The notes under the pieces are model-generated. The model searched no databases. It saw only the letters and a program-made list of their open reading frames with translations, and had not been told where the DNA came from. A DNA stretch of 64,000 bases, from IMG/VR virus record IMGVR_UViG_3300015171_000001, positions 93,281 to 157,280 of that record; one strand, given 5' to 3'. Position numbers and translations under genes: made by a program. The first letter of the stretch is position 1; the number at the start of each line of letters is the position of its first letter. The stretch comes from a virus. Shown piece by piece: positions 9,941 through 51,050 of the stretch.

Positions 9941-12583
9941 ATGTTATTTTCGGCACTCAGAAGATCATTGCTGATAGGCAAAGTGAATATTTTGTCTGGA
10001 CTTTACGCACTAAATAGTGCTGTTACTCCATTTACCATGTCTTCGGTAATATCTGGAAATAACGTATTAACAAAATCGGGAATCGGAGCCATATCTTTAA
10101 CTAATAACAATAATTCTTTTTCAAAAGGAATTGCTGTTTCATCGGGAATATTGGGAGGAACAAATTCTAATTGTTTGGGAAGTGGAACTGCTAGTATCTC
10201 AAAAAATGCACAGATACAGTTAGATTGTGGACAAGGTTCTTATACCTCAAGCATTCCGGCGTTTAATGGAAGTGGATCGTTGTTAATTACTGGGAATAAC
10301 CAAATTCAAATCCAAAACACAATAAATGGATTTTCGGGGGGAACTTTTGTTCTGGGGGGTGCAACATTAAATACTCCTCCCAATACATCAATTGCGTCTA
10401 TTTTAGGGACAGGACAACTTTTTATAGATTCTGGGTCTGTTGTGAATATTAATTCACAAAATAACGGATTAAATGCAGGAAACACTCTTCTGTTCAGCGG
10501 AGTGTCTGGTTCTGGTACTATTAATTTTAATGGAACCACAGGTGGGAATACTATACAAACCAAGCAAGTGAGTTCTAGTTTATTTGTCGGTACTATAAAT
10601 ATTAATCCTTCGGGGACTTCTGGTGTTGGAAAAACACAATTAAATTTTACATTAAATCCTTCCGCGTCTATTAATGTAGGAACTAATGGAACTTTATATG
10701 TCGTGAATGGAAATAATTTCCCAGGAAATATTATTTTAAATGGCGGAACTACTGGGGAGACATTGGGACAATTAAGGATAGAAACTTCTGGATCAAATAT
10801 AACGGGAAATGTCATTCTTAGTGGAAGTGTGTCTACGGGAACAATTGGAAATAATGTTACCGGGGTAACGGTGATGATAAGCGGGCCTATTGTTGGAAAT
10901 TTTAGATTAATCAAGACTGGCCCTGGGACAATTATATTTGGAGGCGGAAATACATATACTGGCGGAAGTAATGCAGCAAATCAAGGAACACTTATAAATC
11001 AAGGAGTTATAGTGGCAACTACATTAAATAGTGTGACTGGAAGTGTTTCCTCTTCTAGTTTTGGAGTACCTACTTCGCCATCTGCAGGAACTATAAATTT
11101 GGGAAATGCTACATTGACAGGAAATTTAATAGTTATTAGTCCAGGAGAAACTACCGATAGAATTGTGAATTTGGGAGGATCTACTGGTGGTGGGGCTATA
11201 TATAATAGCGGATCTGGATATTTGAAATTTACAAGCGATCTTTCAATCACAGGAAACGGGACAAAAAGTTTTACTATGGGCGGTACGGGTCCTATGGAAT
11301 TTGTGGGGGCGATAAGTGATAATAGCCCTACAAACAAAACATATGTTACGAAATCAAATGCAAATACGGTAACACTTTCTGGGAATAATACATATACAGG
11401 AAATACACAACTATTAGGAGGGACATTAATGTTGGGAAGTGGAACTGCACTAGGTTCTGCTTCAAACAGTTGTTCTATAAATTTAAGTTCTTCTTTAGAT
11501 TTAAATGGCCAAACAATATTGAATAATATTTTTACAACAGGAGCAACTCCAACAATAACAAATTCAAGTTCTTCAACGGCAACCATAAATTCAACAATTA
11601 CTAATGGAAATGCCCCAATTTTTATTAGTGGTAGTAGTGGTAATATAGTATTACAAACAGTTACAGGAACTAGTGGATTAACTATTACAAAAAATGGAAC
11701 AAATACTTTAATATTATCCGGTTCTTCAGATAATGCATTTTGTGCATTAAAAATAAATAACGGACTTGTTGTGTTAAATAAATCTGGATCAGGACATTCT
11801 TCTAACAATTTAACCTTGATAAGTGGGACGGTGCAGTTTGGATCTAATAATGTTTCATTGTTAACAGGAACTGGTCAGTTGGCCACAACAACTATACATG
11901 GCGGAACATTTGATTTAAGTGGATCTACTGGAAACAATACCACATTAGGGTCTTTGAGTGGAAGTGGTGGTATTATAACAAATAATGGGTCTGTATCTTC
12001 TACACTGACTATTGGAGGAAATAATGGTGGCGGAGCTAATTATGCAGGAACTCTTCAGAATGGAACAAATACATTATTTTTAACAAAAATAGGAACTGCG
12101 GCAATAACTATGTCTGGAAATAGTACCCATACAGGATCGACTAGTATAACAGGAGGAGAACTACAAATTAACGGTTCTTTTAGTGGATCTACTATATTAA
12201 TAAATGGAGGAAGATTGAGTGGGACGGGTTCGGTGGGTAGTGTAATTTTATCAAATACCGCAAATTCAGTAATTGTTGGGGGTCTTGGTACTGGAAGTTT
12301 TGGGTCATTACTTATGACTGGGTCTTTATATTTTTCAGGGTCTACTTGTGCGTTGGATGTGTATGGAAATGGGTCAACGGCGGCATCTTCAATAGCTGTT
12401 AGTGGATCTACTACATTGAACAGTGCCACTATTAATTTTTTACAAACATTAAACACTGGGACTTATAATTTAATAACAAATACAGTATCGTGCGCGGGGC
12501 TAACTACAATAGGAACTAATAATACTGGACATACCCCATCATGTTCAATAGTTGGGAATAATTTAATTGCTACGATAACATAA
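9941..12583 (+). CDS. Adhesin-like beta-solenoid with passenger-associated transport repeats (PATR); candidate receptor-binding protein
   Basis: Five repeats: LTKSGIGAISLTNNNNSFS, LIKTGPGTIIFGGGNTYTGG, VTKSNANTVTLSGNNTYTGNT, ITKNGTNTLILSGSSDN, LTKIGTAAITMSGNSTHTGST. No autotransporter beta-barrel. Confidence 0.75.
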   Translation: MLFSALRRSLLIGKVNILSGLYALNSAVTPFTMSSVISGNNVLTKSGIGAISLTNNNNSFSKGIAVSSGILGGTNSNCLGSGTASISKNAQIQLDCGQGSYTSSIPAFNGSGSLLITGNNQIQIQNTINGFSGGTFVLGGATLNTPPNTSIASILGTGQLFIDSGSVVNINSQNNGLNAGNTLLFSGVSGSGTINFNGTTGGNTIQTKQVSSSLFVGTININPSGTSGVGKTQLNFTLNPSASINVGTNGTLYVVNGNNFPGNIILNGGTTGETLGQLRIETSGSNITGNVILSGSVSTGTIGNNVTGVTVMISGPIVGNFRLIKTGPGTIIFGGGNTYTGGSNAANQGTLINQGVIVATTLNSVTGSVSSSSFGVPTSPSAGTINLGNATLTGNLIVISPGETTDRIVNLGGSTGGGAIYNSGSGYLKFTSDLSITGNGTKSFTMGGTGPMEFVGAISDNSPTNKTYVTKSNANTVTLSGNNTYTGNTQLLGGTLMLGSGTALGSASNSCSINLSSSLDLNGQTILNNIFTTGATPTITNSSSSTATINSTITNGNAPIFISGSSGNIVLQTVTGTSGLTITKNGTNTLILSGSSDNAFCALKINNGLVVLNKSGSGHSSNNLTLISGTVQFGSNNVSLLTGTGQLATTTIHGGTFDLSGSTGNNTTLGSLSGSGGIITNNGSVSSTLTIGGNNGGGANYAGTLQNGTNTLFLTKIGTAAITMSGNSTHTGSTSITGGELQINGSFSGSTILINGGRLSGTGSVGSVILSNTANSVIVGGLGTGSFGSLLMTGSLYFSGSTCALDVYGNGSTAASSIAVSGSTTLNSATINFLQTLNTGTYNLITNTVSCAGLTTIGTNNTGHTPSCSIVGNNLIATIT

Positions 12584-12593
12584 CCCAAAAACA

Positions 12594-12812
12594 ATGACAA
12601 CAATAACAACATCCGCTATATTTACTATAGGACCAATAACAGACAATATGATAGACACTGTATCAGCCACAATATATTTATCTGGAACAAACATGACTTC
12701 TTTGAATATGACATTATGGTCTGGTCAAGATTATATTAATATTGGAAACTGGACAAATGACCAAGCTATTTCAAGAATTACTTCTTTATTAAATTCTGGC
12801 GCGGGTTCTTAA
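12594..12812 (+). CDS. Small hypothetical protein, possibly a fibre chaperone or tip protein
   Basis: 72 aa with LWSGQDYINIGNWTNDQAISRI, tightly following the PATR gene. Confidence 0.55.
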   Translation: MTTITTSAIFTIGPITDNMIDTVSATIYLSGTNMTSLNMTLWSGQDYINIGNWTNDQAISRITSLLNSGAGS

Positions 12813-13072
12813 TTATAATTAAAATAATTCTAAAATCGGTTTTAAGCGTTATAATTAATGAAATGGTGTCTTCATATTGAATTCTGTTAAAAATGTCACC
12901 TTGGTACATCCTGAGCCAAATAAACGGCAGTTGACAACTGATATTAAATTGCAAAACAATGACACCTTGAAAAATGAATTATTTAATTTAAATAAATTTT
13001 TGTTTTTTATAAATTATTTATTACTAATTATAAGAATATTATTAATTTATTATTATTAATTTATTATTATTA

Positions 13073-13184
13073 ATTTATTAATTTATTAATTTATTAATTT
13101 ATTAATTTATTAATTTATTAATTTATTAATTTATTAATTTATTAATTTATTAATTTATTAATTTATTAATTTATTAATTTATTA
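13073..13184. repeat. (ATTTATTA)14 tandem microsatellite within an AT-only tract
   Basis: 14 perfect 8-mers counted directly, preceded by ATTTATTATTATTA variants from about 13045. Confidence 0.95.
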
Positions 13185-13338
13185 TTATTAATACAAATAA
13201 TTGTAAAATATAATAATTAACGAGTCAAGTTAAAATAAATATTTATTGTGTTTTTTCTGAAAATTCCAGATTGAATTTTCCATATTTGAATTCCCAATCG
13301 TTGTTAATTAATTTAGAGTTATATTTATAACATACGAT

Positions 13339-14619
13339 ATGATCAGAGAAAATACATTTAAAATATATGGGAATAATCTAAATCCAAAAATTTGGAAATC
13401 TGATGGGACTATAAAAACAGAAATTAGAGAAAAATTATTAGAAATTGCTGATAATTTTTATAAAGATTTAGAATTCAATTTTCCTTATTCAGATATTTTA
13501 TTATTAGGATCTAATGCAAATTATGATTGGAATGAATTTTCAGACATAGATTTGCATATTTTAATTGATAGTAAAAAACTAGGTATTAATGATAAATATA
13601 TACAACCATTCTTGGATGGATTGAAAGATAAATGGAATATTAAACACAAAATAACTTTACACGATATTCCTGTCGAAATGTATATTCAAAATATTGATGA
13701 TAAAAATGCTGCTCTTGGAATATTTTCTTTATTGAATAATAAATGGATTAAATTTCCAAAAAAACAAAAAATTTCATTTAATAAAGAAAAAGTAAAAGAA
13801 GATTTTAAAAATATAACTGGGATCATCAATCATATTATAAATAATAATGAATTAGAAAAAGGAAAAAAATTAGAAGATAAAATTTGGGAAATTAGAAAAC
13901 AAGGATTGGGAAATAGAGGAGAATTTTCTGATGGAAATATTTTATTTAAATTATTAAGAAGTTCTGGTTATATTAAAAAACTTATAGATTTTACAAATAA
14001 GTCATATGATGAGAAAGAATCTTTAAAAGAAAAAATTATTGGAGAAGGACTTAATGATCCACATATATTTAAAGCTATATTTATGGCAGGAATTCCTGGT
14101 GCCGGAAAAACAGAAGTATCAAAATATATTAAAGGTGGAACTGGATTGAAAGTAGTAAATATTGATATTTTTAATGAATGGTATTTGAAAAATAAAAAAG
14201 CAATTGATTTTGATAAATTTGATCAATTAATTAATTCTCAATTAAGTACATATATTCAAGGACATTTAGGACTTATTATAGATAAAACTTCCAGTGATTT
14301 TGATATGACATTAAAAACCAAAGAATCTCTTGAATTATTTGGATATGATACCGCTATGATATTTGTCACTGCTGATTTAGAAATAGCAAAACAAAGAGTA
14401 ATTAATAGACAAAAAGAAAATGGGAGAGAGGTAGATACTGATTATATTGATAAAGTCCACACAGCTTTGCAAAAAAGTATAGAGAAGTATACAAAAATTT
14501 TTAAAAATAATTTATTTATTATAGATAATACAGAAAATATTGATTTTGGTAGATTAAATAAACAAGTTAATAAATTTATTAATTCCCCTGTTAAAAATCC
14601 TCTGAGCAAAATTAATTAA
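13339..14619 (+). CDS. Fusion of a Pol-beta-superfamily nucleotidyltransferase and a zeta-toxin/AAA_33-like P-loop kinase
   Basis: LLGSNANYDWNEFSDIDLH (GS...DxD) in the N-half. KAIFMAGIPGAGKT Walker A, LIIDKT and R...R...GR lid in the C-half. Confidence 0.8.
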   Translation: MIRENTFKIYGNNLNPKIWKSDGTIKTEIREKLLEIADNFYKDLEFNFPYSDILLLGSNANYDWNEFSDIDLHILIDSKKLGINDKYIQPFLDGLKDKWNIKHKITLHDIPVEMYIQNIDDKNAALGIFSLLNNKWIKFPKKQKISFNKEKVKEDFKNITGIINHIINNNELEKGKKLEDKIWEIRKQGLGNRGEFSDGNILFKLLRSSGYIKKLIDFTNKSYDEKESLKEKIIGEGLNDPHIFKAIFMAGIPGAGKTEVSKYIKGGTGLKVVNIDIFNEWYLKNKKAIDFDKFDQLINSQLSTYIQGHLGLIIDKTSSDFDMTLKTKESLELFGYDTAMIFVTADLEIAKQRVINRQKENGREVDTDYIDKVHTALQKSIEKYTKIFKNNLFIIDNTENIDFGRLNKQVNKFINSPVKNPLSKIN

Positions 14620-14620
14620 T

Positions 14621-15385
14621 ATGAAATTAAAAACACTTTTAACCGAAATTGAGTCTGAACAAGATCAAATATCAATTCTAAAAAAAGAATGCCCATTTGC
14701 TATTGAAATATATAAAAAATTTAATTATTTGTTTTTTAGAGGATCAAAAAATGTTTCTGTATTTGAAAAAATAAAACCTCTAGTTAATAGATTATCAAGA
14801 GATTCTTCTAATGTTGCTAATTTATTATTTGATAATAATAAAGACAATTCTTCCTATCAAAAAAGATCGAGTTCTATTATTTTTTCTGGAATTAAAAGAG
14901 TTGCTGAAATTTATGGGAATGTACATGTGTTTTTTCCAAAAGGAAATGCAAAAATAACATTTTCTAAAAGTGATTTTATATATACAAAATTAATAAATGT
15001 TCCTATGATATTAGATACATTTGGAAATGAGACTTTTAATTTTTTGTTTGATATTATAGCACCAGAACAAACAAAAGCAACTAGTTTTGAACAACTTGTT
15101 AAATATTTTAAAATAATAGACACGATGGACAAAAAACATTTATCCGAAATGACTTTCTCCAATACTAAATTTCAAGAATTTGTGTATAAGCCGTTTATAA
15201 AAAATAATGTTAAAAATTCATATGATTATTTTTCTAGTTTTGTTTCTAATAAAAATTTGAATTTCGTGGGGAATATATTAATGTCTGAATTGAATAATAT
15301 AAAACATCCCGAATTGTGGACACAAGAAGAAGGATATATGATAGATTTTAAACATTTTTATGATAATTTGAGAAATAAATTATGA
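14621..15385 (+). CDS. ADP-ribosyltransferase-like paralog 1
   Basis: FFRG...NLLFDNN...KRSSSIIFSG...AEIYG...FPKG...PELW, an R-S-E-type motif order. Confidence 0.55.
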   Translation: MKLKTLLTEIESEQDQISILKKECPFAIEIYKKFNYLFFRGSKNVSVFEKIKPLVNRLSRDSSNVANLLFDNNKDNSSYQKRSSSIIFSGIKRVAEIYGNVHVFFPKGNAKITFSKSDFIYTKLINVPMILDTFGNETFNFLFDIIAPEQTKATSFEQLVKYFKIIDTMDKKHLSEMTFSNTKFQEFVYKPFIKNNVKNSYDYFSSFVSNKNLNFVGNILMSELNNIKHPELWTQEEGYMIDFKHFYDNLRNKL

Positions 15386-16167
15386 TTAAGTTAAAAAATA
15401 TACTCAGAGAAATTCAAGAAGTAGATCAACATGTTGCCTTGTTACAAAGGGATTGTGGATTAGCAATTCAAAAAATTGTAAATGAACATTTGGTATTTTA
15501 TAGAGGAGAAAAGGGTTCTGAATTTTTTATAGAAAGGACCGCAAGACCTAGAGTTAGTTTGGATGGGCCCAATATAGCCAATTTATTATTTGATAACAAT
15601 CCCGATAATGTACATTATACAAAAAGAGGGAAGTGTTTGATTTTTAGTTCTAACCAAGAGACTGCTAAACAATTTGGTCATTTACATGTTTTTATTCCAA
15701 AAGGAAATCCTTCTATATCATATATAAAAAGAGATTTTGTTGACTGTTATTTAATAAATCCTCCTCTAACAATATCCTATTTGGATAATATTAGCTATAT
15801 TTTTCGTAAAATACTTGATACTCCTGTAAAAATAAGGACAGTTGATTTCATAAAGAATGCTTGTAAATTTATAGATGATCATCCATTATTTAATGAAGAA
15901 GAAGAGGCTCTATCAATGTTAAAACGTTTGTATATGACCGAGGTGCATTTTACTGAGTGGATACTTCCTGTTTTATTGGGAGACGTAAAAAATTCTTATG
16001 AATATTTTTTGGAAAGCGCGTCTTATGAAAATATTTCAGACACAAATGGAAATAAAAATTTATCAGAATTTCGCAAAACTGATATATTTGACGAATTTTG
16101 GTCAGATTGTTCTGGTTATCTTATAAACAACGATTATTTTGTAAATTCTATTTTTCCAAAATTATGA
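15382..16167 (+). CDS. ADP-ribosyltransferase-like paralog 2
   Basis: FYRG...NLLFDNN...LIFSSNQETAKQFG...IPKG...DEFW. ATGA overlap with paralog 1. Confidence 0.55.
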   Translation: MIKLKNILREIQEVDQHVALLQRDCGLAIQKIVNEHLVFYRGEKGSEFFIERTARPRVSLDGPNIANLLFDNNPDNVHYTKRGKCLIFSSNQETAKQFGHLHVFIPKGNPSISYIKRDFVDCYLINPPLTISYLDNISYIFRKILDTPVKIRTVDFIKNACKFIDDHPLFNEEEEALSMLKRLYMTEVHFTEWILPVLLGDVKNSYEYFLESASYENISDTNGNKNLSEFRKTDIFDEFWSDCSGYLINNDYFVNSIFPKL

Positions 16168-16937
16168 AATTAATGTCCATTTTAAATAATATTAGATTAG
16201 TGGAATCTTATCAGCATATTGATATAAAGGATAAGTCAAATCATGATAATTTTATAAATGAATTTCATTCAAAATGTCAAGTGGCCATAAACAAATATAA
16301 AGAAGGTGTTAGATTTTATAGAGGATTTCCGGCTCCAGAAAAAGATATTGTATATTATATAGATCCCACAAATTATACGAGAAAAGCATCAGAAACGCAT
16401 AATTATATAAATTTATTATTTGATAATAATGCAGAATTGGGTCATGTTGGTAAAAGAAGCAAATCTGTAATAACTTGTACAGATTTTGGACAATCAGATA
16501 GATATGGAAAATCATACATTATTTTTCCAATAGGAGATCCATATATGTCATATGGAAAATCTCCAGACTTTTGGTATAACTTTGAGAACACAATTGGCCA
16601 CGTCGATGTAGTAAATTCCGAAATTAAGAGTATTTTAACCGACGCGCATCAAGATACAAATGATTCGGATATTAATATATTAAAAAAATCATTGAGAAAA
16701 GCACAAGAAATTTTGAAATATAGAGGGGAAGATGAAGAAGTTCAGTATTCTACAGAAGATTATTTTACCGAAGATAAAGATATAGTTGAGAATTTTTTTG
16801 ATAGATTAAATCCACAAAAAAATGGAATAGAATCAAAAAAATTATCGACAATGGGAAGAATGACTAGAAAAGAAATTTGGACAGAAGTACCGTGTTATGC
16901 AATAGATTATTATAAAATATATCAAATATTACCATGA
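16164..16937 (+). CDS. ADP-ribosyltransferase-like paralog 3 (start reassigned to ATG 16164)
   Basis: MKLMSIL start with ATGA overlap. FYRG...NLLFDNN...KRSKSVITCT...YG...FPIG...KEIW. Confidence 0.55.
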   Translation: MKLMSILNNIRLVESYQHIDIKDKSNHDNFINEFHSKCQVAINKYKEGVRFYRGFPAPEKDIVYYIDPTNYTRKASETHNYINLLFDNNAELGHVGKRSKSVITCTDFGQSDRYGKSYIIFPIGDPYMSYGKSPDFWYNFENTIGHVDVVNSEIKSILTDAHQDTNDSDINILKKSLRKAQEILKYRGEDEEVQYSTEDYFTEDKDIVENFFDRLNPQKNGIESKKLSTMGRMTRKEIWTEVPCYAIDYYKIYQILP

Positions 16938-17707
16938 AACTAAAATCTATATTAAAAGAAGTTATATCAAAACAAGAAGTTGAACAACAAAGTTCTTTAG
17001 CAATTCAAAAGGCTAGGGAAGGAGTTTTATTATTTCGTGGGGACAAATCAGAAGAAAAATTTTTCTATAGAGATCCATCAACTAGAGTTAGAAAATCATT
17101 GTCTGGTTATAATATTGTAAATTTATTATTTGATAATAATCCACATTTAGAACATGCTCAAAAAAGAAGTAAGTCTATTATATTTTCAAGACAACAGGAC
17201 ATTGCTAATTATTATGGAAATAAATACATTGTTCTTCCAACACAAGATCCTTATATTTCTTTTATTAATGAAGACTTTGTTTATATAAAACCAAAAATAA
17301 GTGGAAGCACTATGAATAATAGTGCATTTGAATTACATTTATTATCTATAGCAAATATTTGTGGACATGATAATAGATTGTTTGATACATTTGATGAGGT
17401 TAGAGCATGTATTCAAAGTATTGATAAAAATATAAAACCAATGAAATTTGATCGCACACAGAATTATTCAATACTTTGGAATTTTTGTTTAAAAAATAAA
17501 GGACATTTATTGCAATCTATTTTTGAAGTATTTTCTCCAAAAGGACTTGGGGTAACAACAAAAAAATTATCTCAATTAACAAAGTCTGATAATTTCTTAG
17601 AAGGTTGGACTGAACAATCATGTTGGTTTATTAATAATGTTGAATTAAAAAATGAGTTTGGGGTAAAATTTAAAGATAATAAAAAAACCTCGTCAAAATA
17701 TGTTTGA
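16934..17707 (+). CDS. ADP-ribosyltransferase-like paralog 4
   Basis: LFRG...NLLFDNN...KRSKSIIFSR...ANYYG...LEGW. ATGA overlap. Confidence 0.55.
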   Translation: MKLKSILKEVISKQEVEQQSSLAIQKAREGVLLFRGDKSEEKFFYRDPSTRVRKSLSGYNIVNLLFDNNPHLEHAQKRSKSIIFSRQQDIANYYGNKYIVLPTQDPYISFINEDFVYIKPKISGSTMNNSAFELHLLSIANICGHDNRLFDTFDEVRACIQSIDKNIKPMKFDRTQNYSILWNFCLKNKGHLLQSIFEVFSPKGLGVTTKKLSQLTKSDNFLEGWTEQSCWFINNVELKNEFGVKFKDNKKTSSKYV

Positions 17708-17731
17708 CAAGAAGTATCAATTGGTTATAAT
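17704..17731 (+). promoter_or_regulatory. Sigma70-type (early) promoter
   Basis: TTGACA-16 nt-TATAAT, 6 nt upstream of ATG 17738. Confidence 0.65.
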
Positions 17732-17737
17732 ATTTTA

Positions 17738-17902
17738 ATGAAATTTTATACGGGAATAGGTAGTAGAAAAACGCCTATTGATATTAAGACGTTAATTATT
17801 AATATTACTAAAACACTTGCCAATAATTCTTATATTTTAAGAAGTGGAGGTGCCGATGGAGCAAATTTGTTTTTTGAAGAAACTAGAAAAAAGTTTATGT
17901 GA
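17738..17902 (+). pseudogene. Truncated DprA/Smf (SLOG-family) gene, 54 aa
   Basis: Manual translation MKFYTGIGSRKTP...ILRSGGADGANLFFEE matches the N-terminal GSR and SGGAxGAD motifs, then stops early. Confidence 0.7.
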
Positions 17903-18531
17903 AAGAGAATTTAAAAAAAGTTAAATTTCTTAGATTTGGTGGATTATCTCCAGTTATCCAATATGGATATGGAAATAATACTTTTCATGCACCACCAGCA
18001 AAAAAAGGTATTTATGCTTTCCCATATCCATTTATAGAATGGTTTTTGCTCGGGGGTAATTATGCAGATCCAAAAAAATCTATTGTAAAAAATCCAACAA
18101 ATAGAATTCAATATCTTAGAGATAAAAAAGGAAATTTAATTGATACTAATCATCCCGATTATGAAAAACATTCTGCCTGTGACAAAAATTGGACGGCAGA
18201 TAGAAGAAAAACAGAAGAAGATGATTTTTATGGTGTTTTATATCGTCCAAGTTCTAGAAAAATTTTCGAGTATAAAGGCGACATTTGGCATCACTTAGAA
18301 TGTAAAAATAATTTTGTGGTCAATAGACATAATGACTGGATTTTAACTAATTATAAAAACTATACAGATTGTTTATCAAAGCATATTCATAAACAAAAGT
18401 TTGATAGAATGCATGGCAAGTTTATGTGGTTAGATTCTAAAACTTGTTTTGGAGGAAATACAGTATTAAAAGCTCCACAATCTTTTTTTAATAAAGATGA
18501 CATTGAGGTTTTTATTGAAAGAATAAAATAA
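17899..18531 (+). CDS. Hypothetical protein
   Basis: 210 aa ORF with GTGA overlap and normal composition. Confidence 0.7.
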   Translation: MKENLKKVKFLRFGGLSPVIQYGYGNNTFHAPPAKKGIYAFPYPFIEWFLLGGNYADPKKSIVKNPTNRIQYLRDKKGNLIDTNHPDYEKHSACDKNWTADRRKTEEDDFYGVLYRPSSRKIFEYKGDIWHHLECKNNFVVNRHNDWILTNYKNYTDCLSKHIHKQKFDRMHGKFMWLDSKTCFGGNTVLKAPQSFFNKDDIEVFIERIK

Positions 18532-18569
18532 ATGTTGACTTTTTGTGAATTTATATTATAATAAATAAT

Positions 18570-18758
18570 ATGAATTATTTAAATGAAAGATTGTTGAGAA
18601 TGTTTGTAGAAGATAGATTTTTAGAAGATATGAAGAAATTTAATATAATTTCTAAAGATATTATAAATTCTTTAAAGAATAAAATTATACACCACGAAGG
18701 TAATAGACGGTTGGTAGTTAATAATAGAATAATCGAAGCATATCCAGAACTATTGTGA
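18570..18758 (+). CDS. Small hypothetical protein
   Basis: Preceded by TTGACT-16-TATAAT (18535-18562). Confidence 0.5.
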   Translation: MNYLNERLLRMFVEDRFLEDMKKFNIISKDIINSLKNKIIHHEGNRRLVVNNRIIEAYPELL

Positions 18759-20243
18759 AATTGGATTGTTCCATATCCATTTAGAATCTCCACAATCCCA
18801 TATTCTATCCCAATTGTTATTTCTCATATTTTCCCATTCGGATAAATTTTCATCAAAATTATTGACAATATCTTTTAATTTGTTTTTTGTAAAATACATT
18901 TTTGGATATGCTTCTTTGTAATCATCTGTGTAATAATATCTTGGAAGTGTATTGTCAAAAAATACAAATCCTAATTTTGAATAAACTTCCCCAGTAAAAA
19001 ATCGGCGGTCACTAAAAGATACTACACTATTTGGATTATAATTTTTAATAAAATGTTTGAATATTTTACTAATCCCACCAATAATAATTGTATTTAATTT
19101 ACAACAATACCTACTAACTTCCCATTCTATTTGTTGATTAAATTTGCTCTTACAAAGTGTCATTAAACTAACTAACTCGTCTTTATAATATAATCCCAAC
19201 TTAACTCCACTCTTATCTTCACCATTTAAATCATTGTTTTCTAGAAATGTACTACTATCAATATTATCCACTTCTTTAATTACACATTTTCTAGCACCTA
19301 TTTTATTTGATATGTTGCCCAATTTATTATTTATAATAGATTTTATTATTTCTGTTTTGTTTTGCCAATCGTCACTCTGAATCTGTAATAAGGTAATTCC
19401 ATTGATAATACATTTTTTTAATTTGTTTAAATGATATACCTTATTCTTTTTTCCGCCAATTTCACTGTGCCAATATATTCCATTATATTCTAATGCAATT
19501 TTTTTTGTGGGTATATAGAAATCTAATTCTTTTCCAGATAATATTTCTCTATCTCTTCTTGCAATAATTTCTTTTGTTGCCTCAGATAAAAATAAAAATA
19601 ATTCATTCTCGGCTTTCATTCTATATGGATTGCATTTTTCACAAAATATGTTGTTTGTGTTGTATGCTGTAATATAAAAAGTCAAGTCGCATACATTACA
19701 TTTAACTGGATATTTATTCTTCCAGTTATATCCTTTGTAGTCAGATATTTGAAAAAGTTCTGTCAGTTTTTCTTTTTTTAAAATAGATATTATTTTGTGA
19801 TAATTATTATCTCTTCTAGTTTGATTTTCTTTTTTTTTAAAAGCCTCTACTTTTGCAGCATTATCTACTCCATATCTTTCCAATAAAGTAGATTCACATT
19901 TTTCTAGATTATTATAATTCTCGTCTCCATATCTTTCTAATTTGGTGGATTTTACTTTATTAATATAATCTGGATGTTTGCTATAATGGTCCACCCCATA
20001 TTTTTCCAATAAAGATTTTTTTAAACTTTCTTTTCCGACATTACATTGCATGTGATGTCCACCATAATTTTTCAATAAAGTTTTTTTAACACCATCTCTA
20101 TTTTTTTGTTTTATAATAGGATTTGAACTAGAACACTTTTTAGAGCAAAATACTCTTTTTCTAATTTTTGGACTCTCAAAATTTATTCCACATGTTAAAC
20201 ATGGTTTAGTTTCATTGGTGTTTGGATCTTTTTTTCTAGGCAT
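18750..20243 (-). CDS. Hef-like free-standing homing endonuclease (Zn finger, KYG repeats, PD-(D/E)xK nuclease, GNAT-like C-terminus)
   Basis: CLTC...FCSKKC, LEKYGVD/LERYGDE repeats, ELDFYIP..KIALEYNGIYWHS, WEVSRYC, SFSDRRF, WDRIWDCG. Likely start is MPRKK at 20243. Confidence 0.75.
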   Translation of the reverse strand: MPRKKDPNTNETKPCLTCGINFESPKIRKRVFCSKKCSSSNPIIKQKNRDGVKKTLLKNYGGHHMQCNVGKESLKKSLLEKYGVDHYSKHPDYINKVKSTKLERYGDENYNNLEKCESTLLERYGVDNAAKVEAFKKKENQTRRDNNYHKIISILKKEKLTELFQISDYKGYNWKNKYPVKCNVCDLTFYITAYNTNNIFCEKCNPYRMKAENELFLFLSEATKEIIARRDREILSGKELDFYIPTKKIALEYNGIYWHSEIGGKKNKVYHLNKLKKCIINGITLLQIQSDDWQNKTEIIKSIINNKLGNISNKIGARKCVIKEVDNIDSSTFLENNDLNGEDKSGVKLGLYYKDELVSLMTLCKSKFNQQIEWEVSRYCCKLNTIIIGGISKIFKHFIKNYNPNSVVSFSDRRFFTGEVYSKLGFVFFDNTLPRYYYTDDYKEAYPKMYFTKNKLKDIVNNFDENLSEWENMRNNNWDRIWDCGDSKWIWNNPISQ

Positions 20244-20359
20244 ATATGTGTTTAGTTCTAATATAGCCAATATATTACTCTATTTTTCAAAACATGTCTA
20301 TTTATTTTAATAATTATTATTTATAATAGAACAAACAACTAAATTAACTTGACAAATAT

Positions 20360-20848
20360 ATGGCACAACTGATAGAATCCAATGAAATATTCTTTACGGC
20401 ATTCGAGCCAAAAGTGAGTAACCGCTTTATCATGTACATTGATGGAGTACCTGCTTTCTTGATCAAAGGCGTAAAAAGACCCTCAATCAATCTTAACACA
20501 ATAAAACTAGACCACATCAACATTTATCGTAAATTAAAAGGTAAAGCAGAGTGGGAAGATGTGTCTTTAACTTTGTACGATCCCGTATCACCATCTGGCG
20601 CACAAACAGTAATGGAATGGATTAGATTATCACACGAATCGGTGTCGGGCCGAGATGGGTATGGGGACTTCTATAAAAAGGATGTATCTATTCAAGTATT
20701 AGGTCCCGTGGGAGATGTTGTAGAAGAATGGACCCTTAAGGGGGCCTTTGTGTCTGCTGCTGAATTTGGAGAACTTAATTGGGAAACCGGCGATCCAATC
20801 ATGATTAATGTAACGCTCTCGATGGATTATTGCATACTTCAATTCTAG
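20360..20848 (+). CDS. Tail tube protein (gp19-like)
   Basis: FEPKVSNRF, GKAEWEDVSLTLYDP, YKKD..IQVLGPVGDVVEEWTLKGAF, LSMDY. Confidence 0.92.
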   Translation: MAQLIESNEIFFTAFEPKVSNRFIMYIDGVPAFLIKGVKRPSINLNTIKLDHINIYRKLKGKAEWEDVSLTLYDPVSPSGAQTVMEWIRLSHESVSGRDGYGDFYKKDVSIQVLGPVGDVVEEWTLKGAFVSAAEFGELNWETGDPIMINVTLSMDYCILQF

Positions 20849-25393: not shown

Positions 25394-26668
25394 ATGAAAC
25401 GATCAGAATTAAAAGAATTAGTAAAACAGGTAATTTCGGAGCAAAAATTTAAAGATGCTCCAAAGGATAAAAAAGTAAAACCAGAACCAACAATTTCAAA
25501 AAATGATATTGGACAGGAAAAAGCTGTCAGAGAATTTCTATCATCAAGAAAGAATTATACATCACATTGTGAGCAATTGGAAGATGTTGCTAAATCATTA
25601 AAAATAAATGTTAAAGATAAGACTGGAAAGAAATTATCAGATGCTATTATAGATGAATTAAATAAGGATAAAAAGAATGTATCAAAGGTTTTCAAAGCTC
25701 TTAAGAGTAAGAAATTAATAACAGAATCTATAGATCAATTGATAGTTAATAAACATTTGAGATTGATTAAAGTGGTATTATTTAAAATGGGCGCAGTCAA
25801 AAATCCTATGGAAGTGGATGTTAAAAAGGACATTTCTTATTATGTTGAACCAGAAGATTTTACTGAATTTTGTGAAAAATTAAAACTCACTCCTCCAATG
25901 TATGATGATTCATTATCAATTGACGAATATGCTAATTTGTGGGCCGAAGAAGATGAAGAAAAAAACACACCAGAATCAACTTTAAAAACTCCAGAAATTA
26001 GCCCAGAAGAAAGAGAAGTAAGAAGATTTTTATCTACAAGAAAAGATACAAATAATCATATTGAACAACTGTTGCAAATATCTCATTTACTTGGAATAAG
26101 TGTAAAGGGAAGTGATATTGATGATTTATTTAAAGTTATTTCGGATAAATTAGATCAAGATCCAATTTCTATTGAAAAAGTATTTGATTTTTTAAAGCAA
26201 ACAAAATTGATTAAAGAAATTAAAAAAATATCTTTAATAGATTTAAGAAATATTATTAAAGAAGTGATTTCTTCTGAAATGGAAGAATCCACGATTAGGA
26301 AACCTAATAAACCATACCCAAGGATTGCTGTTGGACACGAGGCACACGAAACTTCCACAACTAGAAGTTCTTTGGAAAAAGCTAAAAAATTAAATAAAAT
26401 ATATGGGAAACCTACAGAAATTTATTTACAATCTATGCCGCCAGAAGAAAAAGGACCTTTATTTTTAGTCACTGCGACATATGGTGATAAACAACACTCT
26501 TTTGAAGGATTTTCTTGGGGATATAAAGGAGAAGGTTCGTTAGGATTAAAAGAATATTTGTTAAGTGTTGGAATTCCAGAAGGTATTGATAAAATTTATG
26601 AGTTTGATCAGAAATCAAATTATTTATATACCAATGAAGATGGATCATGGCATCTAGAAAGAGAATAA
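25394..26668 (+). CDS. Putative internal head polyprotein with a duplicated domain
   Basis: MKRSELKELVKQVISE start, two copies of VR.FLS.RK....H.EQL...KVF..LK..KLI.E, and internal LRNIIKEVISSE. Confidence 0.55.
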   Translation: MKRSELKELVKQVISEQKFKDAPKDKKVKPEPTISKNDIGQEKAVREFLSSRKNYTSHCEQLEDVAKSLKINVKDKTGKKLSDAIIDELNKDKKNVSKVFKALKSKKLITESIDQLIVNKHLRLIKVVLFKMGAVKNPMEVDVKKDISYYVEPEDFTEFCEKLKLTPPMYDDSLSIDEYANLWAEEDEEKNTPESTLKTPEISPEEREVRRFLSTRKDTNNHIEQLLQISHLLGISVKGSDIDDLFKVISDKLDQDPISIEKVFDFLKQTKLIKEIKKISLIDLRNIIKEVISSEMEESTIRKPNKPYPRIAVGHEAHETSTTRSSLEKAKKLNKIYGKPTEIYLQSMPPEEKGPLFLVTATYGDKQHSFEGFSWGYKGEGSLGLKEYLLSVGIPEGIDKIYEFDQKSNYLYTNEDGSWHLERE

Positions 26669-39375: not shown

Positions 39376-40194
39376 ATGAATGTTATCGACGATGTATTGA
39401 TTGAAATTTCTGCAAAAGCCAGCAATGGGTTAGTAGATTTTACAAAACCAGAAAGTTTAAGATTGTTAAGAGAGTTTCTTCAGAAAAATAAATTAGAAGA
39501 ATCTGAAATTAAATCTACTATAAATAAAATTATTAGTATACTAATCCCAGAAAGGATTGCTTATAATTCAGAAGGATATGCAGTAATTTTTGAAAATGAG
39601 GAAGATAAGATTAGTTCTCTTGGAAATGGTGATGTAACAGAAGAACCACCAAAAGATCCAACAAAATTCTCTTATAAAAATGATGATACTGTGACAAAAG
39701 ATGCTCCAAAACCAGTACCACAACAAAATCCTCCTGCACAAAAACAAAAAGCTCCACAGCCAGAGAATCAAACAGATTTGAATAAAATAGATGCCACTGT
39801 CGATCCTGAACAAAGAACTGGCAGTGAAGTAAAACAACCTGATACTACACCACAAAAAAATACAGACGGTTCTCCTAATGCACCAACAACGCCAGCAAGT
39901 TTATCTGATTGGAAACATTCTCCAGAAGAAACTAGAGCAAAAGCCGATGCGTTGGGGTGGGAACAAGATGAATTAGGATATTTTTGGTTACATGGTAAAT
40001 TACAAGCAATAACAACAAGAAAAGGTTATATTATGCCAATTTTAAATGGCGATAAAGCCACTCCCACAGATTGGCCAGAAGCAGAAGTATCCGATAATGA
40101 GAAATCATCAGAAGATGCTCCTGCACCAAAAGAGGAACCAACACCTGTTCCACAACAACCTGTAAAAGCACCAGTTGTTCCTCCAGCGAAATAA
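39376..40194 (+). CDS. Pro/Gln-rich hypothetical protein
   Basis: 272 aa ORF with low-complexity linkers and an upstream TATTTATA. Confidence 0.7.
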   Translation: MNVIDDVLIEISAKASNGLVDFTKPESLRLLREFLQKNKLEESEIKSTINKIISILIPERIAYNSEGYAVIFENEEDKISSLGNGDVTEEPPKDPTKFSYKNDDTVTKDAPKPVPQQNPPAQKQKAPQPENQTDLNKIDATVDPEQRTGSEVKQPDTTPQKNTDGSPNAPTTPASLSDWKHSPEETRAKADALGWEQDELGYFWLHGKLQAITTRKGYIMPILNGDKATPTDWPEAEVSDNEKSSEDAPAPKEEPTPVPQQPVKAPVVPPAK

Positions 40195-50573: not shown

Positions 50574-51050
50574 ATGGCAATAAAGACTTTAAGACAGTTG
50601 GTTAACGAAATTACACAATCTACTTCTGAACACCAAAGAAGTGTAAATAAATATGTTCAAGAAATTGAAAAAGTTTTGAAGAAAGAGATGGGAGACTATT
50701 GTTCGGTAAATGTTGATGATAGTCAAGTGATTATACTGGATGATGGTGAGTCTGGAAATGCATTTGATGTTCATATTCGAGTTTTATCAAGAAACTTATT
50801 TTCACTAGAATGTTTTATTGGTGGAAAACATGGTAAAAAGTATACAGAAACTAATCTTACTATGGACGATCTTTTAGATTGGATCAAGAATGAACTTAAA
50901 CAAGAAGTTGAAGAATTGGACAAGTCTACTGAAGATGATTTGGATGAAAAGGGTTATGATGGTTCTGAAAAAGGAAAAAAGAAAGAAGATAAATCTTTTA
51001 CAATTTCAAGCAAAGATTTAAATAGAAAAGCAGGCGGTCCACAAAAATAA
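50574..51050 (+). CDS. Hypothetical acidic protein, possible internal head protein
   Basis: MAIKTLRQLVNE tag, with TATTTATA 6 nt upstream. Confidence 0.55.
   Translation: MAIKTLRQLVNEITQSTSEHQRSVNKYVQEIEKVLKKEMGDYCSVNVDDSQVIILDDGESGNAFDVHIRVLSRNLFSLECFIGGKHGKKYTETNLTMDDLLDWIKNELKQEVEELDKSTEDDLDEKGYDGSEKGKKKEDKSFTISSKDLNRKAGGPQK

Follow-up and report, generated by a model that had tools for sequence, protein, structure and literature searches.

What are four diverged copies of one enzyme-like gene, encoded back to back behind a nucleotidyltransferase–kinase fusion, doing among the tail genes of a phage? The question is raised by the window analysed here, the last 64 kb of a linear IMG/VR virus record (157,280 bp, ~28% G+C, CheckV completeness 67%) that belongs to an uncultured T4-type myovirus. 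At window positions 13339–17707 the plus strand carries a cassette of five open reading frames (ORFs): gene 1, a fusion of a nucleotidyltransferase (NTase) and a P-loop kinase, followed by the genes of four paralogous proteins of ~255 amino acids (aa) that resemble ADP-ribosyltransferases (ARTs) (Table 1). We propose that these paralogs are made late, loaded into the head of the phage and injected as ART-like effectors that are diversified in a helical insert, a reading that we hold with slightly more confidence than doubt.

The ORFs are joined by one 1-nucleotide (nt) gap (TAA-T-ATG) and three ATGA overlaps and stand behind a single TATTTATA motif; coordinates and junctions bear out the arrangement described in the initial annotation of this DNA. 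For paralog 3, the ATG at 16164 was taken as the start. An upstream TTG at 16098 is also possible, and the ATG is favoured because of its ATGA overlap and the conserved N-terminus that it provides. A megablast search of the operon DNA against phage records returned no match.

A widespread protein family with conserved polar residues

Paralogs 2–4 are 24–34% identical to paralog 1, and each paralog matches a hidden Markov model (HMM) of the family with E-values of ~1e-39 to 1e-65, placing their paralogy far above chance. Their isoelectric points (pI) lie between 5.7 and 9.3. When 1.84 billion cluster representatives (clusters at 50% identity) were searched with a family profile, 2966 matched at E ≤0.001, 1192 of them at E ≤1e-10, and nearly all family members measure 250–290 aa. 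The family has thousands of metagenomic members and is found in the cultured phages Atu_ph07 of Agrobacterium (13 copies of the domain, of which 12 form one array), RsoM2USA (four copies) and Salicola phage SCTP-2; everywhere it is annotated as hypothetical. Sequence searches of Pfam, NCBIfam and PDB with the paralogs gave no family match, and the PHROG families that were matched are of unknown function (paralog 3 matches phrog_12810, E 6e-19). A word-based protein search with paralog 3 found only the query itself.

The family alignment is without any conserved stretch of 7–10 columns. About a dozen polar residues are nonetheless 94–100% conserved across 140 members that are only ~20–40% identical to the modelled copy, paralog 4. 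In the numbering of that copy, conservation over the 140 members is 0.95 for R35, 0.99 for G36, 0.99 for R53, 0.95 for S55, 1.0 for N60, 1.0 for R78, 0.94 for S81, 0.99 for D114, 1.0 for E223 and 0.99 for W225. The initial annotation had quoted a series of motifs as kept by all four paralogs. This holds for [FY]RG, NLLFDNN, KR and E-x-W, which are present in every copy, and fails for the S, A..[YF]G and P.G, each of which is found in three of the four.

Predicted fold and candidate active-site positions

An AlphaFold model of paralog 4, built from the 140-sequence alignment, reached a predicted local distance difference test (pLDDT) score of 92.2 and a predicted template modelling (pTM) score of 0.87 and has the split β-sheet core of ART folds. 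Among the solved structures nearest to the model, ART folds account for 24 of the top 25, and for 13 of 16 in a second comparison. The assignment follows from the uniform fold class of these neighbours and not from single structural Z scores, each of which lies below what chance can give. Foldseek against PDB gave nothing below an E-value of 0.2 with this model. In the ESM Atlas, with its own single-sequence model, the nearest named neighbours beyond clusters of the family itself are ART-PolyVal and DRAT, and the nearest by sequence features is DUF2441, which belongs to the Pfam ART clan (PMC7955679). Structure prediction, the check proposed in the initial annotation, thus speaks for an ART relationship at the level of fold. 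On the strength of these models the family very probably adopts an ART-superfamily fold; NAD-dependent transfer (NAD, nicotinamide adenine dinucleotide) by the family is, in our judgement, an even call.

The catalytic order of R-S-E ADP-ribosyltransferases is R / S-x-S / E. R35 and G36 (95–99% conserved) lie on strand 34–37 of the model. Cholera/LT toxin A1 aligns model residues 29/32 to chain residues 1/4, and Arr aligns residue 29 to its residue 13; by these offsets, R35 of [FY]RG falls on R7 of cholera toxin and H19 of Arr, the first catalytic position. The profile alignment program hhalign also pairs R35, weakly, with R73 of ModB. S81 (94% conserved, Cys in paralog 2) stands just before strand 82–85, without an S-T-S motif. 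The invariant E223 is the first residue of the late strand 223–226, as is the case for the catalytic Glu of ARTs.

A variable helical insert between strand 4 and the Glu strand

The least conserved part of the domain is a helical insert at residues ~129–205, placed after strand 4 and before the Glu strand. Within it the four copies share 16% pairwise identity, compared with 38% in the N-terminal part of the core. The initial annotation had located the variable part in the C-terminal third. This placement has to be revised, as it is the insert that varies, whereas conservation extends over the last two strands, which include E-x-W. In C3-like ARTs, a target-recognition loop (the ADP-ribosylating turn-turn, or ARTT, loop) lies at the position that matches the insert. 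Because the insert is variable and occupies this position, target diversification is a reasonable inference, and by analogy with the C3-like enzymes the insert probably gives each paralog its own target.

A capsid-type leader and a probable virion-gene expression signal

Similarity among the four copies peaks in the first dozen residues (53% identity). These residues form a leader of ~9–14 residues with the pattern hydrophobic-x-x-hydrophobic-hydrophobic-x-Glu, and a hydrophobic-x-Glu within residues 4–14 occurs in 117 of the 140 family members, compared with 5–44 in control windows. The N-terminus of the T4 internal proteins IPII/IPIII, MKTYQEFIAE, follows the same pattern. In the capsid targeting sequence (CTS) of T4, targeting depends on positions 4 and 7, and cutting by gp21 on positions 8 and 10 (PMC9026906). 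Ten ORF starts found in Atu_ph07 have M[RK]W.QL.E in common, with varying codons, and the RsoM2USA copies carry FLQE, YLTE and DLFE in the leader. The first 10 residues of the paralog 4 model have a pLDDT of 57, unlike the domain.

Genome-wide, 17 of the 143 ORFs have a leader motif that begins among their first 13 residues, where ~2.5 such ORFs are expected. Most of the ORFs that bear it are grouped around the prohead protease, scaffold position and capsid gene (record positions 63–86 kb) and are otherwise unrelated. A prohead protease (PF03420) scores above the cut-off in the present genome, in Atu_ph07 and in RsoM2USA. Moreover, multi-copy relatives of the family carry the cut motif at their domain joints, namely V-N-E/S, V-I-E/S and L-K-E/S in relative P0009 and L-T-E/A in relative P0090 (a slash marks the predicted cut). 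Together, the leader statistics, the protease, the joint motifs and the low pLDDT of the leader provide sequence-level support for a predicted loading of the paralogs into the capsid and their processing by the protease. The initial annotation had already suggested injected effectors, before this evidence was at hand, and its reading is now supported in terms of fold and genomic context.

Leader-pattern starts are also seen on three other ORFs of the window, at 25394–26668 (MKRSELKELVKQVISE), 39376–40194 (MNVIDDVLIE) and 50574–51050 (MAIKTLRQLVNE), which are candidates for additional capsid cargo by virtue of this pattern.

The TATTTATA motif ahead of gene 1 is also present before the genes of the prohead protease, sheath, tube and fibres. 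In the genome, 18 of its 51 copies lie ≤40 nt upstream of the start of a plus-strand ORF, compared with 1 of 32 copies of its reverse complement. TATTTATA is probably a late (virion-gene) expression signal, and because it precedes virion genes the cassette is most likely expressed with them.

Across the genome, the motif (often as TATATTTATAAT) stands 3–9 nt before the ATG of many virion genes. A promoter at this distance from the ATG would give mRNAs with almost no leader; alternatively, the motif could be a signal for translation.

Gene 1 and the link between kinase and ART-like domain

The initial annotation had read gene 1 as an NTase–kinase fusion, and both halves are recognised as such: NTP_transf_2 and a G-S...D-x-D motif in the N-terminal half, Zeta_toxin and a Walker A motif in the C-terminal half. 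The NTP_transf_2 match of the Pol-beta-type NTase half is borderline at 21.3 bits (cut-off 21), and the MTPAP-like and Polbeta models score weaker. This half also matches phrog_36119 (E 2e-41), and its G57-S58, D69 and D71 are invariant across an alignment of 32 homologues. The NTase profile gave a weak match to the DrrA AMPylase domain (E 0.004), and in some relatives the NTase is joined to Nudix or DUF6934; no significant match to this half came from RlaP, MntA or other named NTases. The kinase half matches Pfam Zeta_toxin (PF06414) with 58.9 bits (cut-off 22.3, E 6e-16). It was folded alone; a whole-protein MAFFT alignment of gene 1 put kinase-only sequences in the wrong place. The resulting model (pLDDT 80.7) has PSTK, adenylate and UMP/CMP kinases, polynucleotide kinases and zeta toxin as neighbours. 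Nucleotide, polynucleotide and zeta-type kinases are about equally similar to it and are not distinguished by searches with the fold or with a profile against PDB.

Elsewhere, NTase (~250 aa) and kinase (~240 aa) almost always occur as proteins of their own. No second full-length NTase–kinase fusion was found among the homologues, and a locus search found no relatives of gene 1 in IMG/VR. The joint between the halves carries I-G-E before G237, the only [LIV]xE + G/S/A site in the gene 1 protein. This site aligns with the invariant E-G that closes the leader of stand-alone kinase homologues, in which the leader stands right before the kinase core (MKTFQDLQE/GLNDPNIFKA; motif in 45 of 50). Since the site is kept at the joint, the fusion may be cut into NTase and kinase.

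In two other phages, the kinase is tied to the ART-like domain. It is fused behind that domain in Atu_ph07, with 35–38% identity to the kinase half of gene 1, and in RsoM2USA the kinase gene overlaps an ART-like gene by 4 nt. From this linkage we infer that the P-loop kinase may be a functional partner of the ART-like domain. Within the RsoM2USA cluster (160943–168569), ORFs 258, 256, 255 and 254 start with a hydrophobic-x-x-hydrophobic-L-x-E leader. ORF257, which lies between them in the same ART-like/kinase cluster, is one of ten virion proteins found by mass spectrometry (PMC8504454), the sole and indirect hint that proteins of this kind occur in virions; its full length computes to 19.6 kDa as against the 17.57 kDa given in that paper. 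In Pelagibacter phage HTVC008M (106562–109011), a kinase homologue with the leader stands before a HIGH-type NTase-like gene that has one too. The product of the latter has 596 aa, starts with MKTLKELL and contains the HIGH-type NTase motif GRLNPPTVGH, which makes it another pairing of kinase and NTase.

Two further candidates were rejected. Kinases with N-terminal extensions of ~300 aa (P0243, P0268), considered as additional ART fusions, have no ART-like domain, and the C-terminal 320 aa of the Atu_ph07 fusion are not the NTase.

Proposed mechanism and alternatives

In the mechanism that we propose, the cassette would be capsid cargo, expressed with the virion genes. The leader would take each paralog into the prohead core, a gp21-type protease would cut after the leader Glu to give a mature protein of ~28 kDa, and the mature paralogs would be injected together with the DNA. 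Their catalytic part would be an ART-fold domain with the strand-1 Arg ([FY]RG), the Ser before strand 2, the invariant Glu that opens the late strand and more conserved Arg, Asn and Asp residues. The likeliest chemistry would be an NAD-dependent modification of host macromolecules with ADP-ribose as soon as infection begins, and the helical insert just before the Glu strand would set a separate target for each paralog. The P-loop kinase would be their partner, made here in fusion with the NTase, with a protease-type site where the two meet. In a wider version, T4-like phages from 150-kb marine to 490-kb jumbo genomes would pack arrays of diversified enzymes from a hitherto unrecognised ART-fold family and a dedicated kinase, and both would act sequentially on shared host molecules in the opening seconds of infection, as a two-enzyme kit for takeover or counter-defence whose many targets would be set by a swappable insert; this extension is speculative and, in our view, rather doubtful.

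Several observations weigh against the proposed mechanism. The E/Q-x-E motif is absent, and Cys replaces the family Ser in paralog 2. The family profile retrieved no ART from PDB and Pfam, only low-complexity helical or chance single-member matches, and in a comparison with T4 ModA/ModB by hhalign the YRG motif alone could be aligned (10 columns, probability 1.5%). The R, S and E positions are those given by alignment and strand order. The NTase–kinase protein itself begins with MIRENTF, without a leader, and the leader of the paralogs could as well be a helix that belongs to the N-terminus of the domains themselves. Finally, no virion proteome was found to contain a family member; the RsoM2USA study covered only 10 gel bands.

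The alternative that fares best, improbable as we consider it, is that the packaged ART-fold enzymes and the kinase jointly act on the ends of nucleic acids or on nucleotides, not on proteins. The kinase would make a 5′-phosphate and the ART domain would cap it or remove phosphate using NAD, as Tpt1 does; in an immune-signal version, the ART-fold enzymes would alter NAD-derived immune signals and the NTase would add or restore nucleotides. Tpt1/KptA and DarT are indeed among the fold matches of the paralog 4 model, and three near-invariant Arg residues (R35, R53, R78) suit phosphate-rich ligands. The kinase, fused or coupled to the ART-like domain in three phages, is as similar to polynucleotide kinases and PSTK as to zeta toxin, although its fold search does not tell substrates apart. 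The matches of the NTase to poly(A)-polymerase-like models and the Nudix fusions of its relatives would fit as well. However, the Tpt1 catalytic tetrad was not found and there is no RNA ligase nearby, and arrays of 4 to 13 diverged copies better fit many targets than one repair reaction.

Somewhat less probable is an unpackaged product, whose N-terminus would be a structural helix or other tag and which would act in the cell late, for instance on phage or host components during assembly. The proteomic data back no member, the genes lie in the tail region and not the head region both here and in RsoM2USA, and the genome carries three radical S-adenosylmethionine (radical-SAM) genes. The last of these points loses its force because the three genes are ~20 kb or more from any leader-bearing ORF, and the leader was rejected as a radical-SAM tag for this reason. 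Furthermore, the leader has the spacing of the T4 CTS, with the gp21 cut motif at its end, is common to unrelated ORFs beside the protease and scaffold, and persists as a motif at internal polyprotein joints. No better placed are packaged non-catalytic binders, in which an ART scaffold would be reused, as in the case of T4 IPI, and a different protein of host defence would be blocked by each paralog. In favour of this, the internal proteins of T4 are varied inhibitors of defence with nothing but the CTS in common (PMC3012670), the copies differ strongly from one another (also in pI, as given above) and the canonical S-T-S and E-x-E are absent, but the dozen or so highly conserved polar residues, catalytic-type Arg and Glu among them, look like an active site and not like a binder.

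Comparison with known systems

Our preferred reading, packaged and injected ART-like effectors, has a precedent: phage ARTs that are head-packaged and injected are an established concept for T4 Alt and have been predicted broadly (PMC9503650). The family is like Alt in its (predicted) ART fold, its T4-type myovirus setting, an N-terminal propeptide of the type removed by gp21 (7 residues in Alt, PMC9026906) and delivery with the DNA, which is a prediction for the family. Unlike Alt, which has 682 aa and E-x-E and is encoded by one gene, its members have ~255 aa, a single Glu and a large helical insert and occur in arrays of 4–13 copies. The Pfam model ADPrib_exo_Tox (Alt/VIP2) found no match in the four paralogs (E up to 1), the 140 members or the genome record. 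The IPI, IPII and IPIII internal proteins of T4 share with the family the pattern and length of the leader (MKTYQEFIAE vs MKLKSILKE), the hydrophobic-x-Glu cut site and the diversity of the proteins behind it (PMC9026906, PMC3012670). Whereas they are small basic non-enzymes, the present cargo would comprise enzyme-like domains and a kinase family with the same type of leader.

ModA/ModB, cholera toxin and C3 resemble the family in the strand-1 hydrophobic-[FY]-R-G and in the conserved order of Arg, Ser and Glu. ModA/ModB, however, are early, unpackaged proteins with E-x-E, and their profile similarity to the family does not extend over the domain. Among the minimal ART folds Arr and BC2332, Arr has His and Asp where the family has Arg and Glu, and a small-molecule substrate; Arr is also without a leader and is not found in arrays. 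ART-PolyVal of the phage polyvalent proteins (Iyer et al. 2017, 2022) is likewise a predicted virion-delivered phage ART, and some relatives of our family are multi-domain proteins as well (P0009), but the family does not match its Pfam model, and delivery of the family would rely on a CTS-type leader and a protease in place of a MuF/portal fusion. The kinase shares the above-cut-off Zeta_toxin match, the Walker A motif and the fold with zeta toxin, polynucleotide and nucleoside monophosphate kinases. Unlike the zeta toxin class, the gene 1 kinase is without an epsilon-type antitoxin, and its family has a capsid-type leader and a link to the ART-like domain.

What is new here is an ART-like family in tandem arrays and polyproteins, with a CTS-type leader in place of a MuF fusion and with a putative dedicated partner kinase. 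Two Aravind-group surveys (PMC7824862, PMC9503650) deal with packaged phage ARTs, and their searchable text mentions neither the family nor the Atu_ph07 array. If the proposed mechanism is correct, it would name one of the larger unannotated phage protein families, and the leader with its cut site would serve as a sequence rule for finding injected cargo in uncultured T4-like phages. The paralogs would then be enzymes that act early, and their targets in the host could bring new mechanisms of takeover or anti-defence to light. Since Atu_ph07 and RsoM2USA are cultured, this reading is directly testable.

Genomic setting and neighbouring features

Table 1. Features of the cassette and its borders (positions in the window).
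Feature	Position	Strand	Remarks
TATTTATA motif	13322–13329	+	9 nt ahead of the first ATG of the cassette
Gene 1 (NTase–kinase fusion)	13339–14619	+	426 aa
NTase half, Pol-beta-type	13339–14019	+	Residues 1–227; G57-S58 ... D69-x-D71 at 13507–13551
P-loop kinase half	14020–14619	+	Residues 228–426; Walker A GIPGAGKT (G251–T258) at 14089–14112
Prohead-protease-type site at the NTase/kinase joint	14038–14046	+	I234-G235-E236, before G237
ART-like paralog 1	14621–15385	+	254 aa; leader MKLKTLLTE at 14621–14647; family HMM E 8e-47
ART-like paralog 2	15382–16167	+	261 aa; leader MIKLKNILRE at 15382–15411; family HMM E 6e-39
ART-like paralog 3	16164–16937	+	257 aa; leader MKLMSILNNIRLVE at 16164–16205; family HMM E 5e-65
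ART-like paralog 4 (modelled copy)	16934–17707	+	257 aa; leader MKLKSILKE at 16934–16960
Paralog 4, R35	17036–17038	+	
Paralog 4, S81	17174–17176	+	
Paralog 4, variable helical insert	17318–17548	+	
Paralog 4, E223	17600–17602	+	
Perfect sigma-70-type promoter	17704–17731	+	TTGACA, 16 nt, TATAAT; sole 12/12 match in 12500–18900

The cassette sits between the tail sheath and tail tube genes. These genes are adjacent in T4 and lie 18.7 kb apart here, the sheath gene ending at window position 1626 and the gp19 tail tube gene standing at 20360. The same stretch contains fibre-like genes for proteins of 1397, 474 and 880 aa, the last of them with PATR repeats, and an HNH homing endonuclease gene on the minus strand (18750–20270). 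The head genes lie upstream of the window: the gp23-type capsid gene at record positions 80020–81645 and the gp21-type prohead protease gene (PF03420) at record positions 74605–76284. The protease ORF has 559 aa, and its Peptidase_S77 match falls into two pieces (profile positions 28–95 and 100–193) that are split by ~1.1 kb of extra coding sequence, which may be an intein or an inserted domain. The three radical-SAM genes are grouped within 8 kb at record positions 12126–20425, outside the window.

Downstream, the sigma-70-type promoter stands directly ahead of the ORF at 17738 and opens the next, separate unit. This ORF encodes 54 aa, and its N-terminus (GIGSRKTP...RSGGADGA) resembles the start of a SLOG/TIGR00725-type protein (E 0.069). 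It is overlapped by 4 nt by a GTG-start ORF of 210 aa, the promoter and both ORFs lying within 17704–18531, and the two ORFs may represent a truncated or split gene. Upstream, the 526-nt gap before the cassette contains an A+T-only tandem repeat of TTATTAAT, with 20 copies (92% matches) at 13039–13192.

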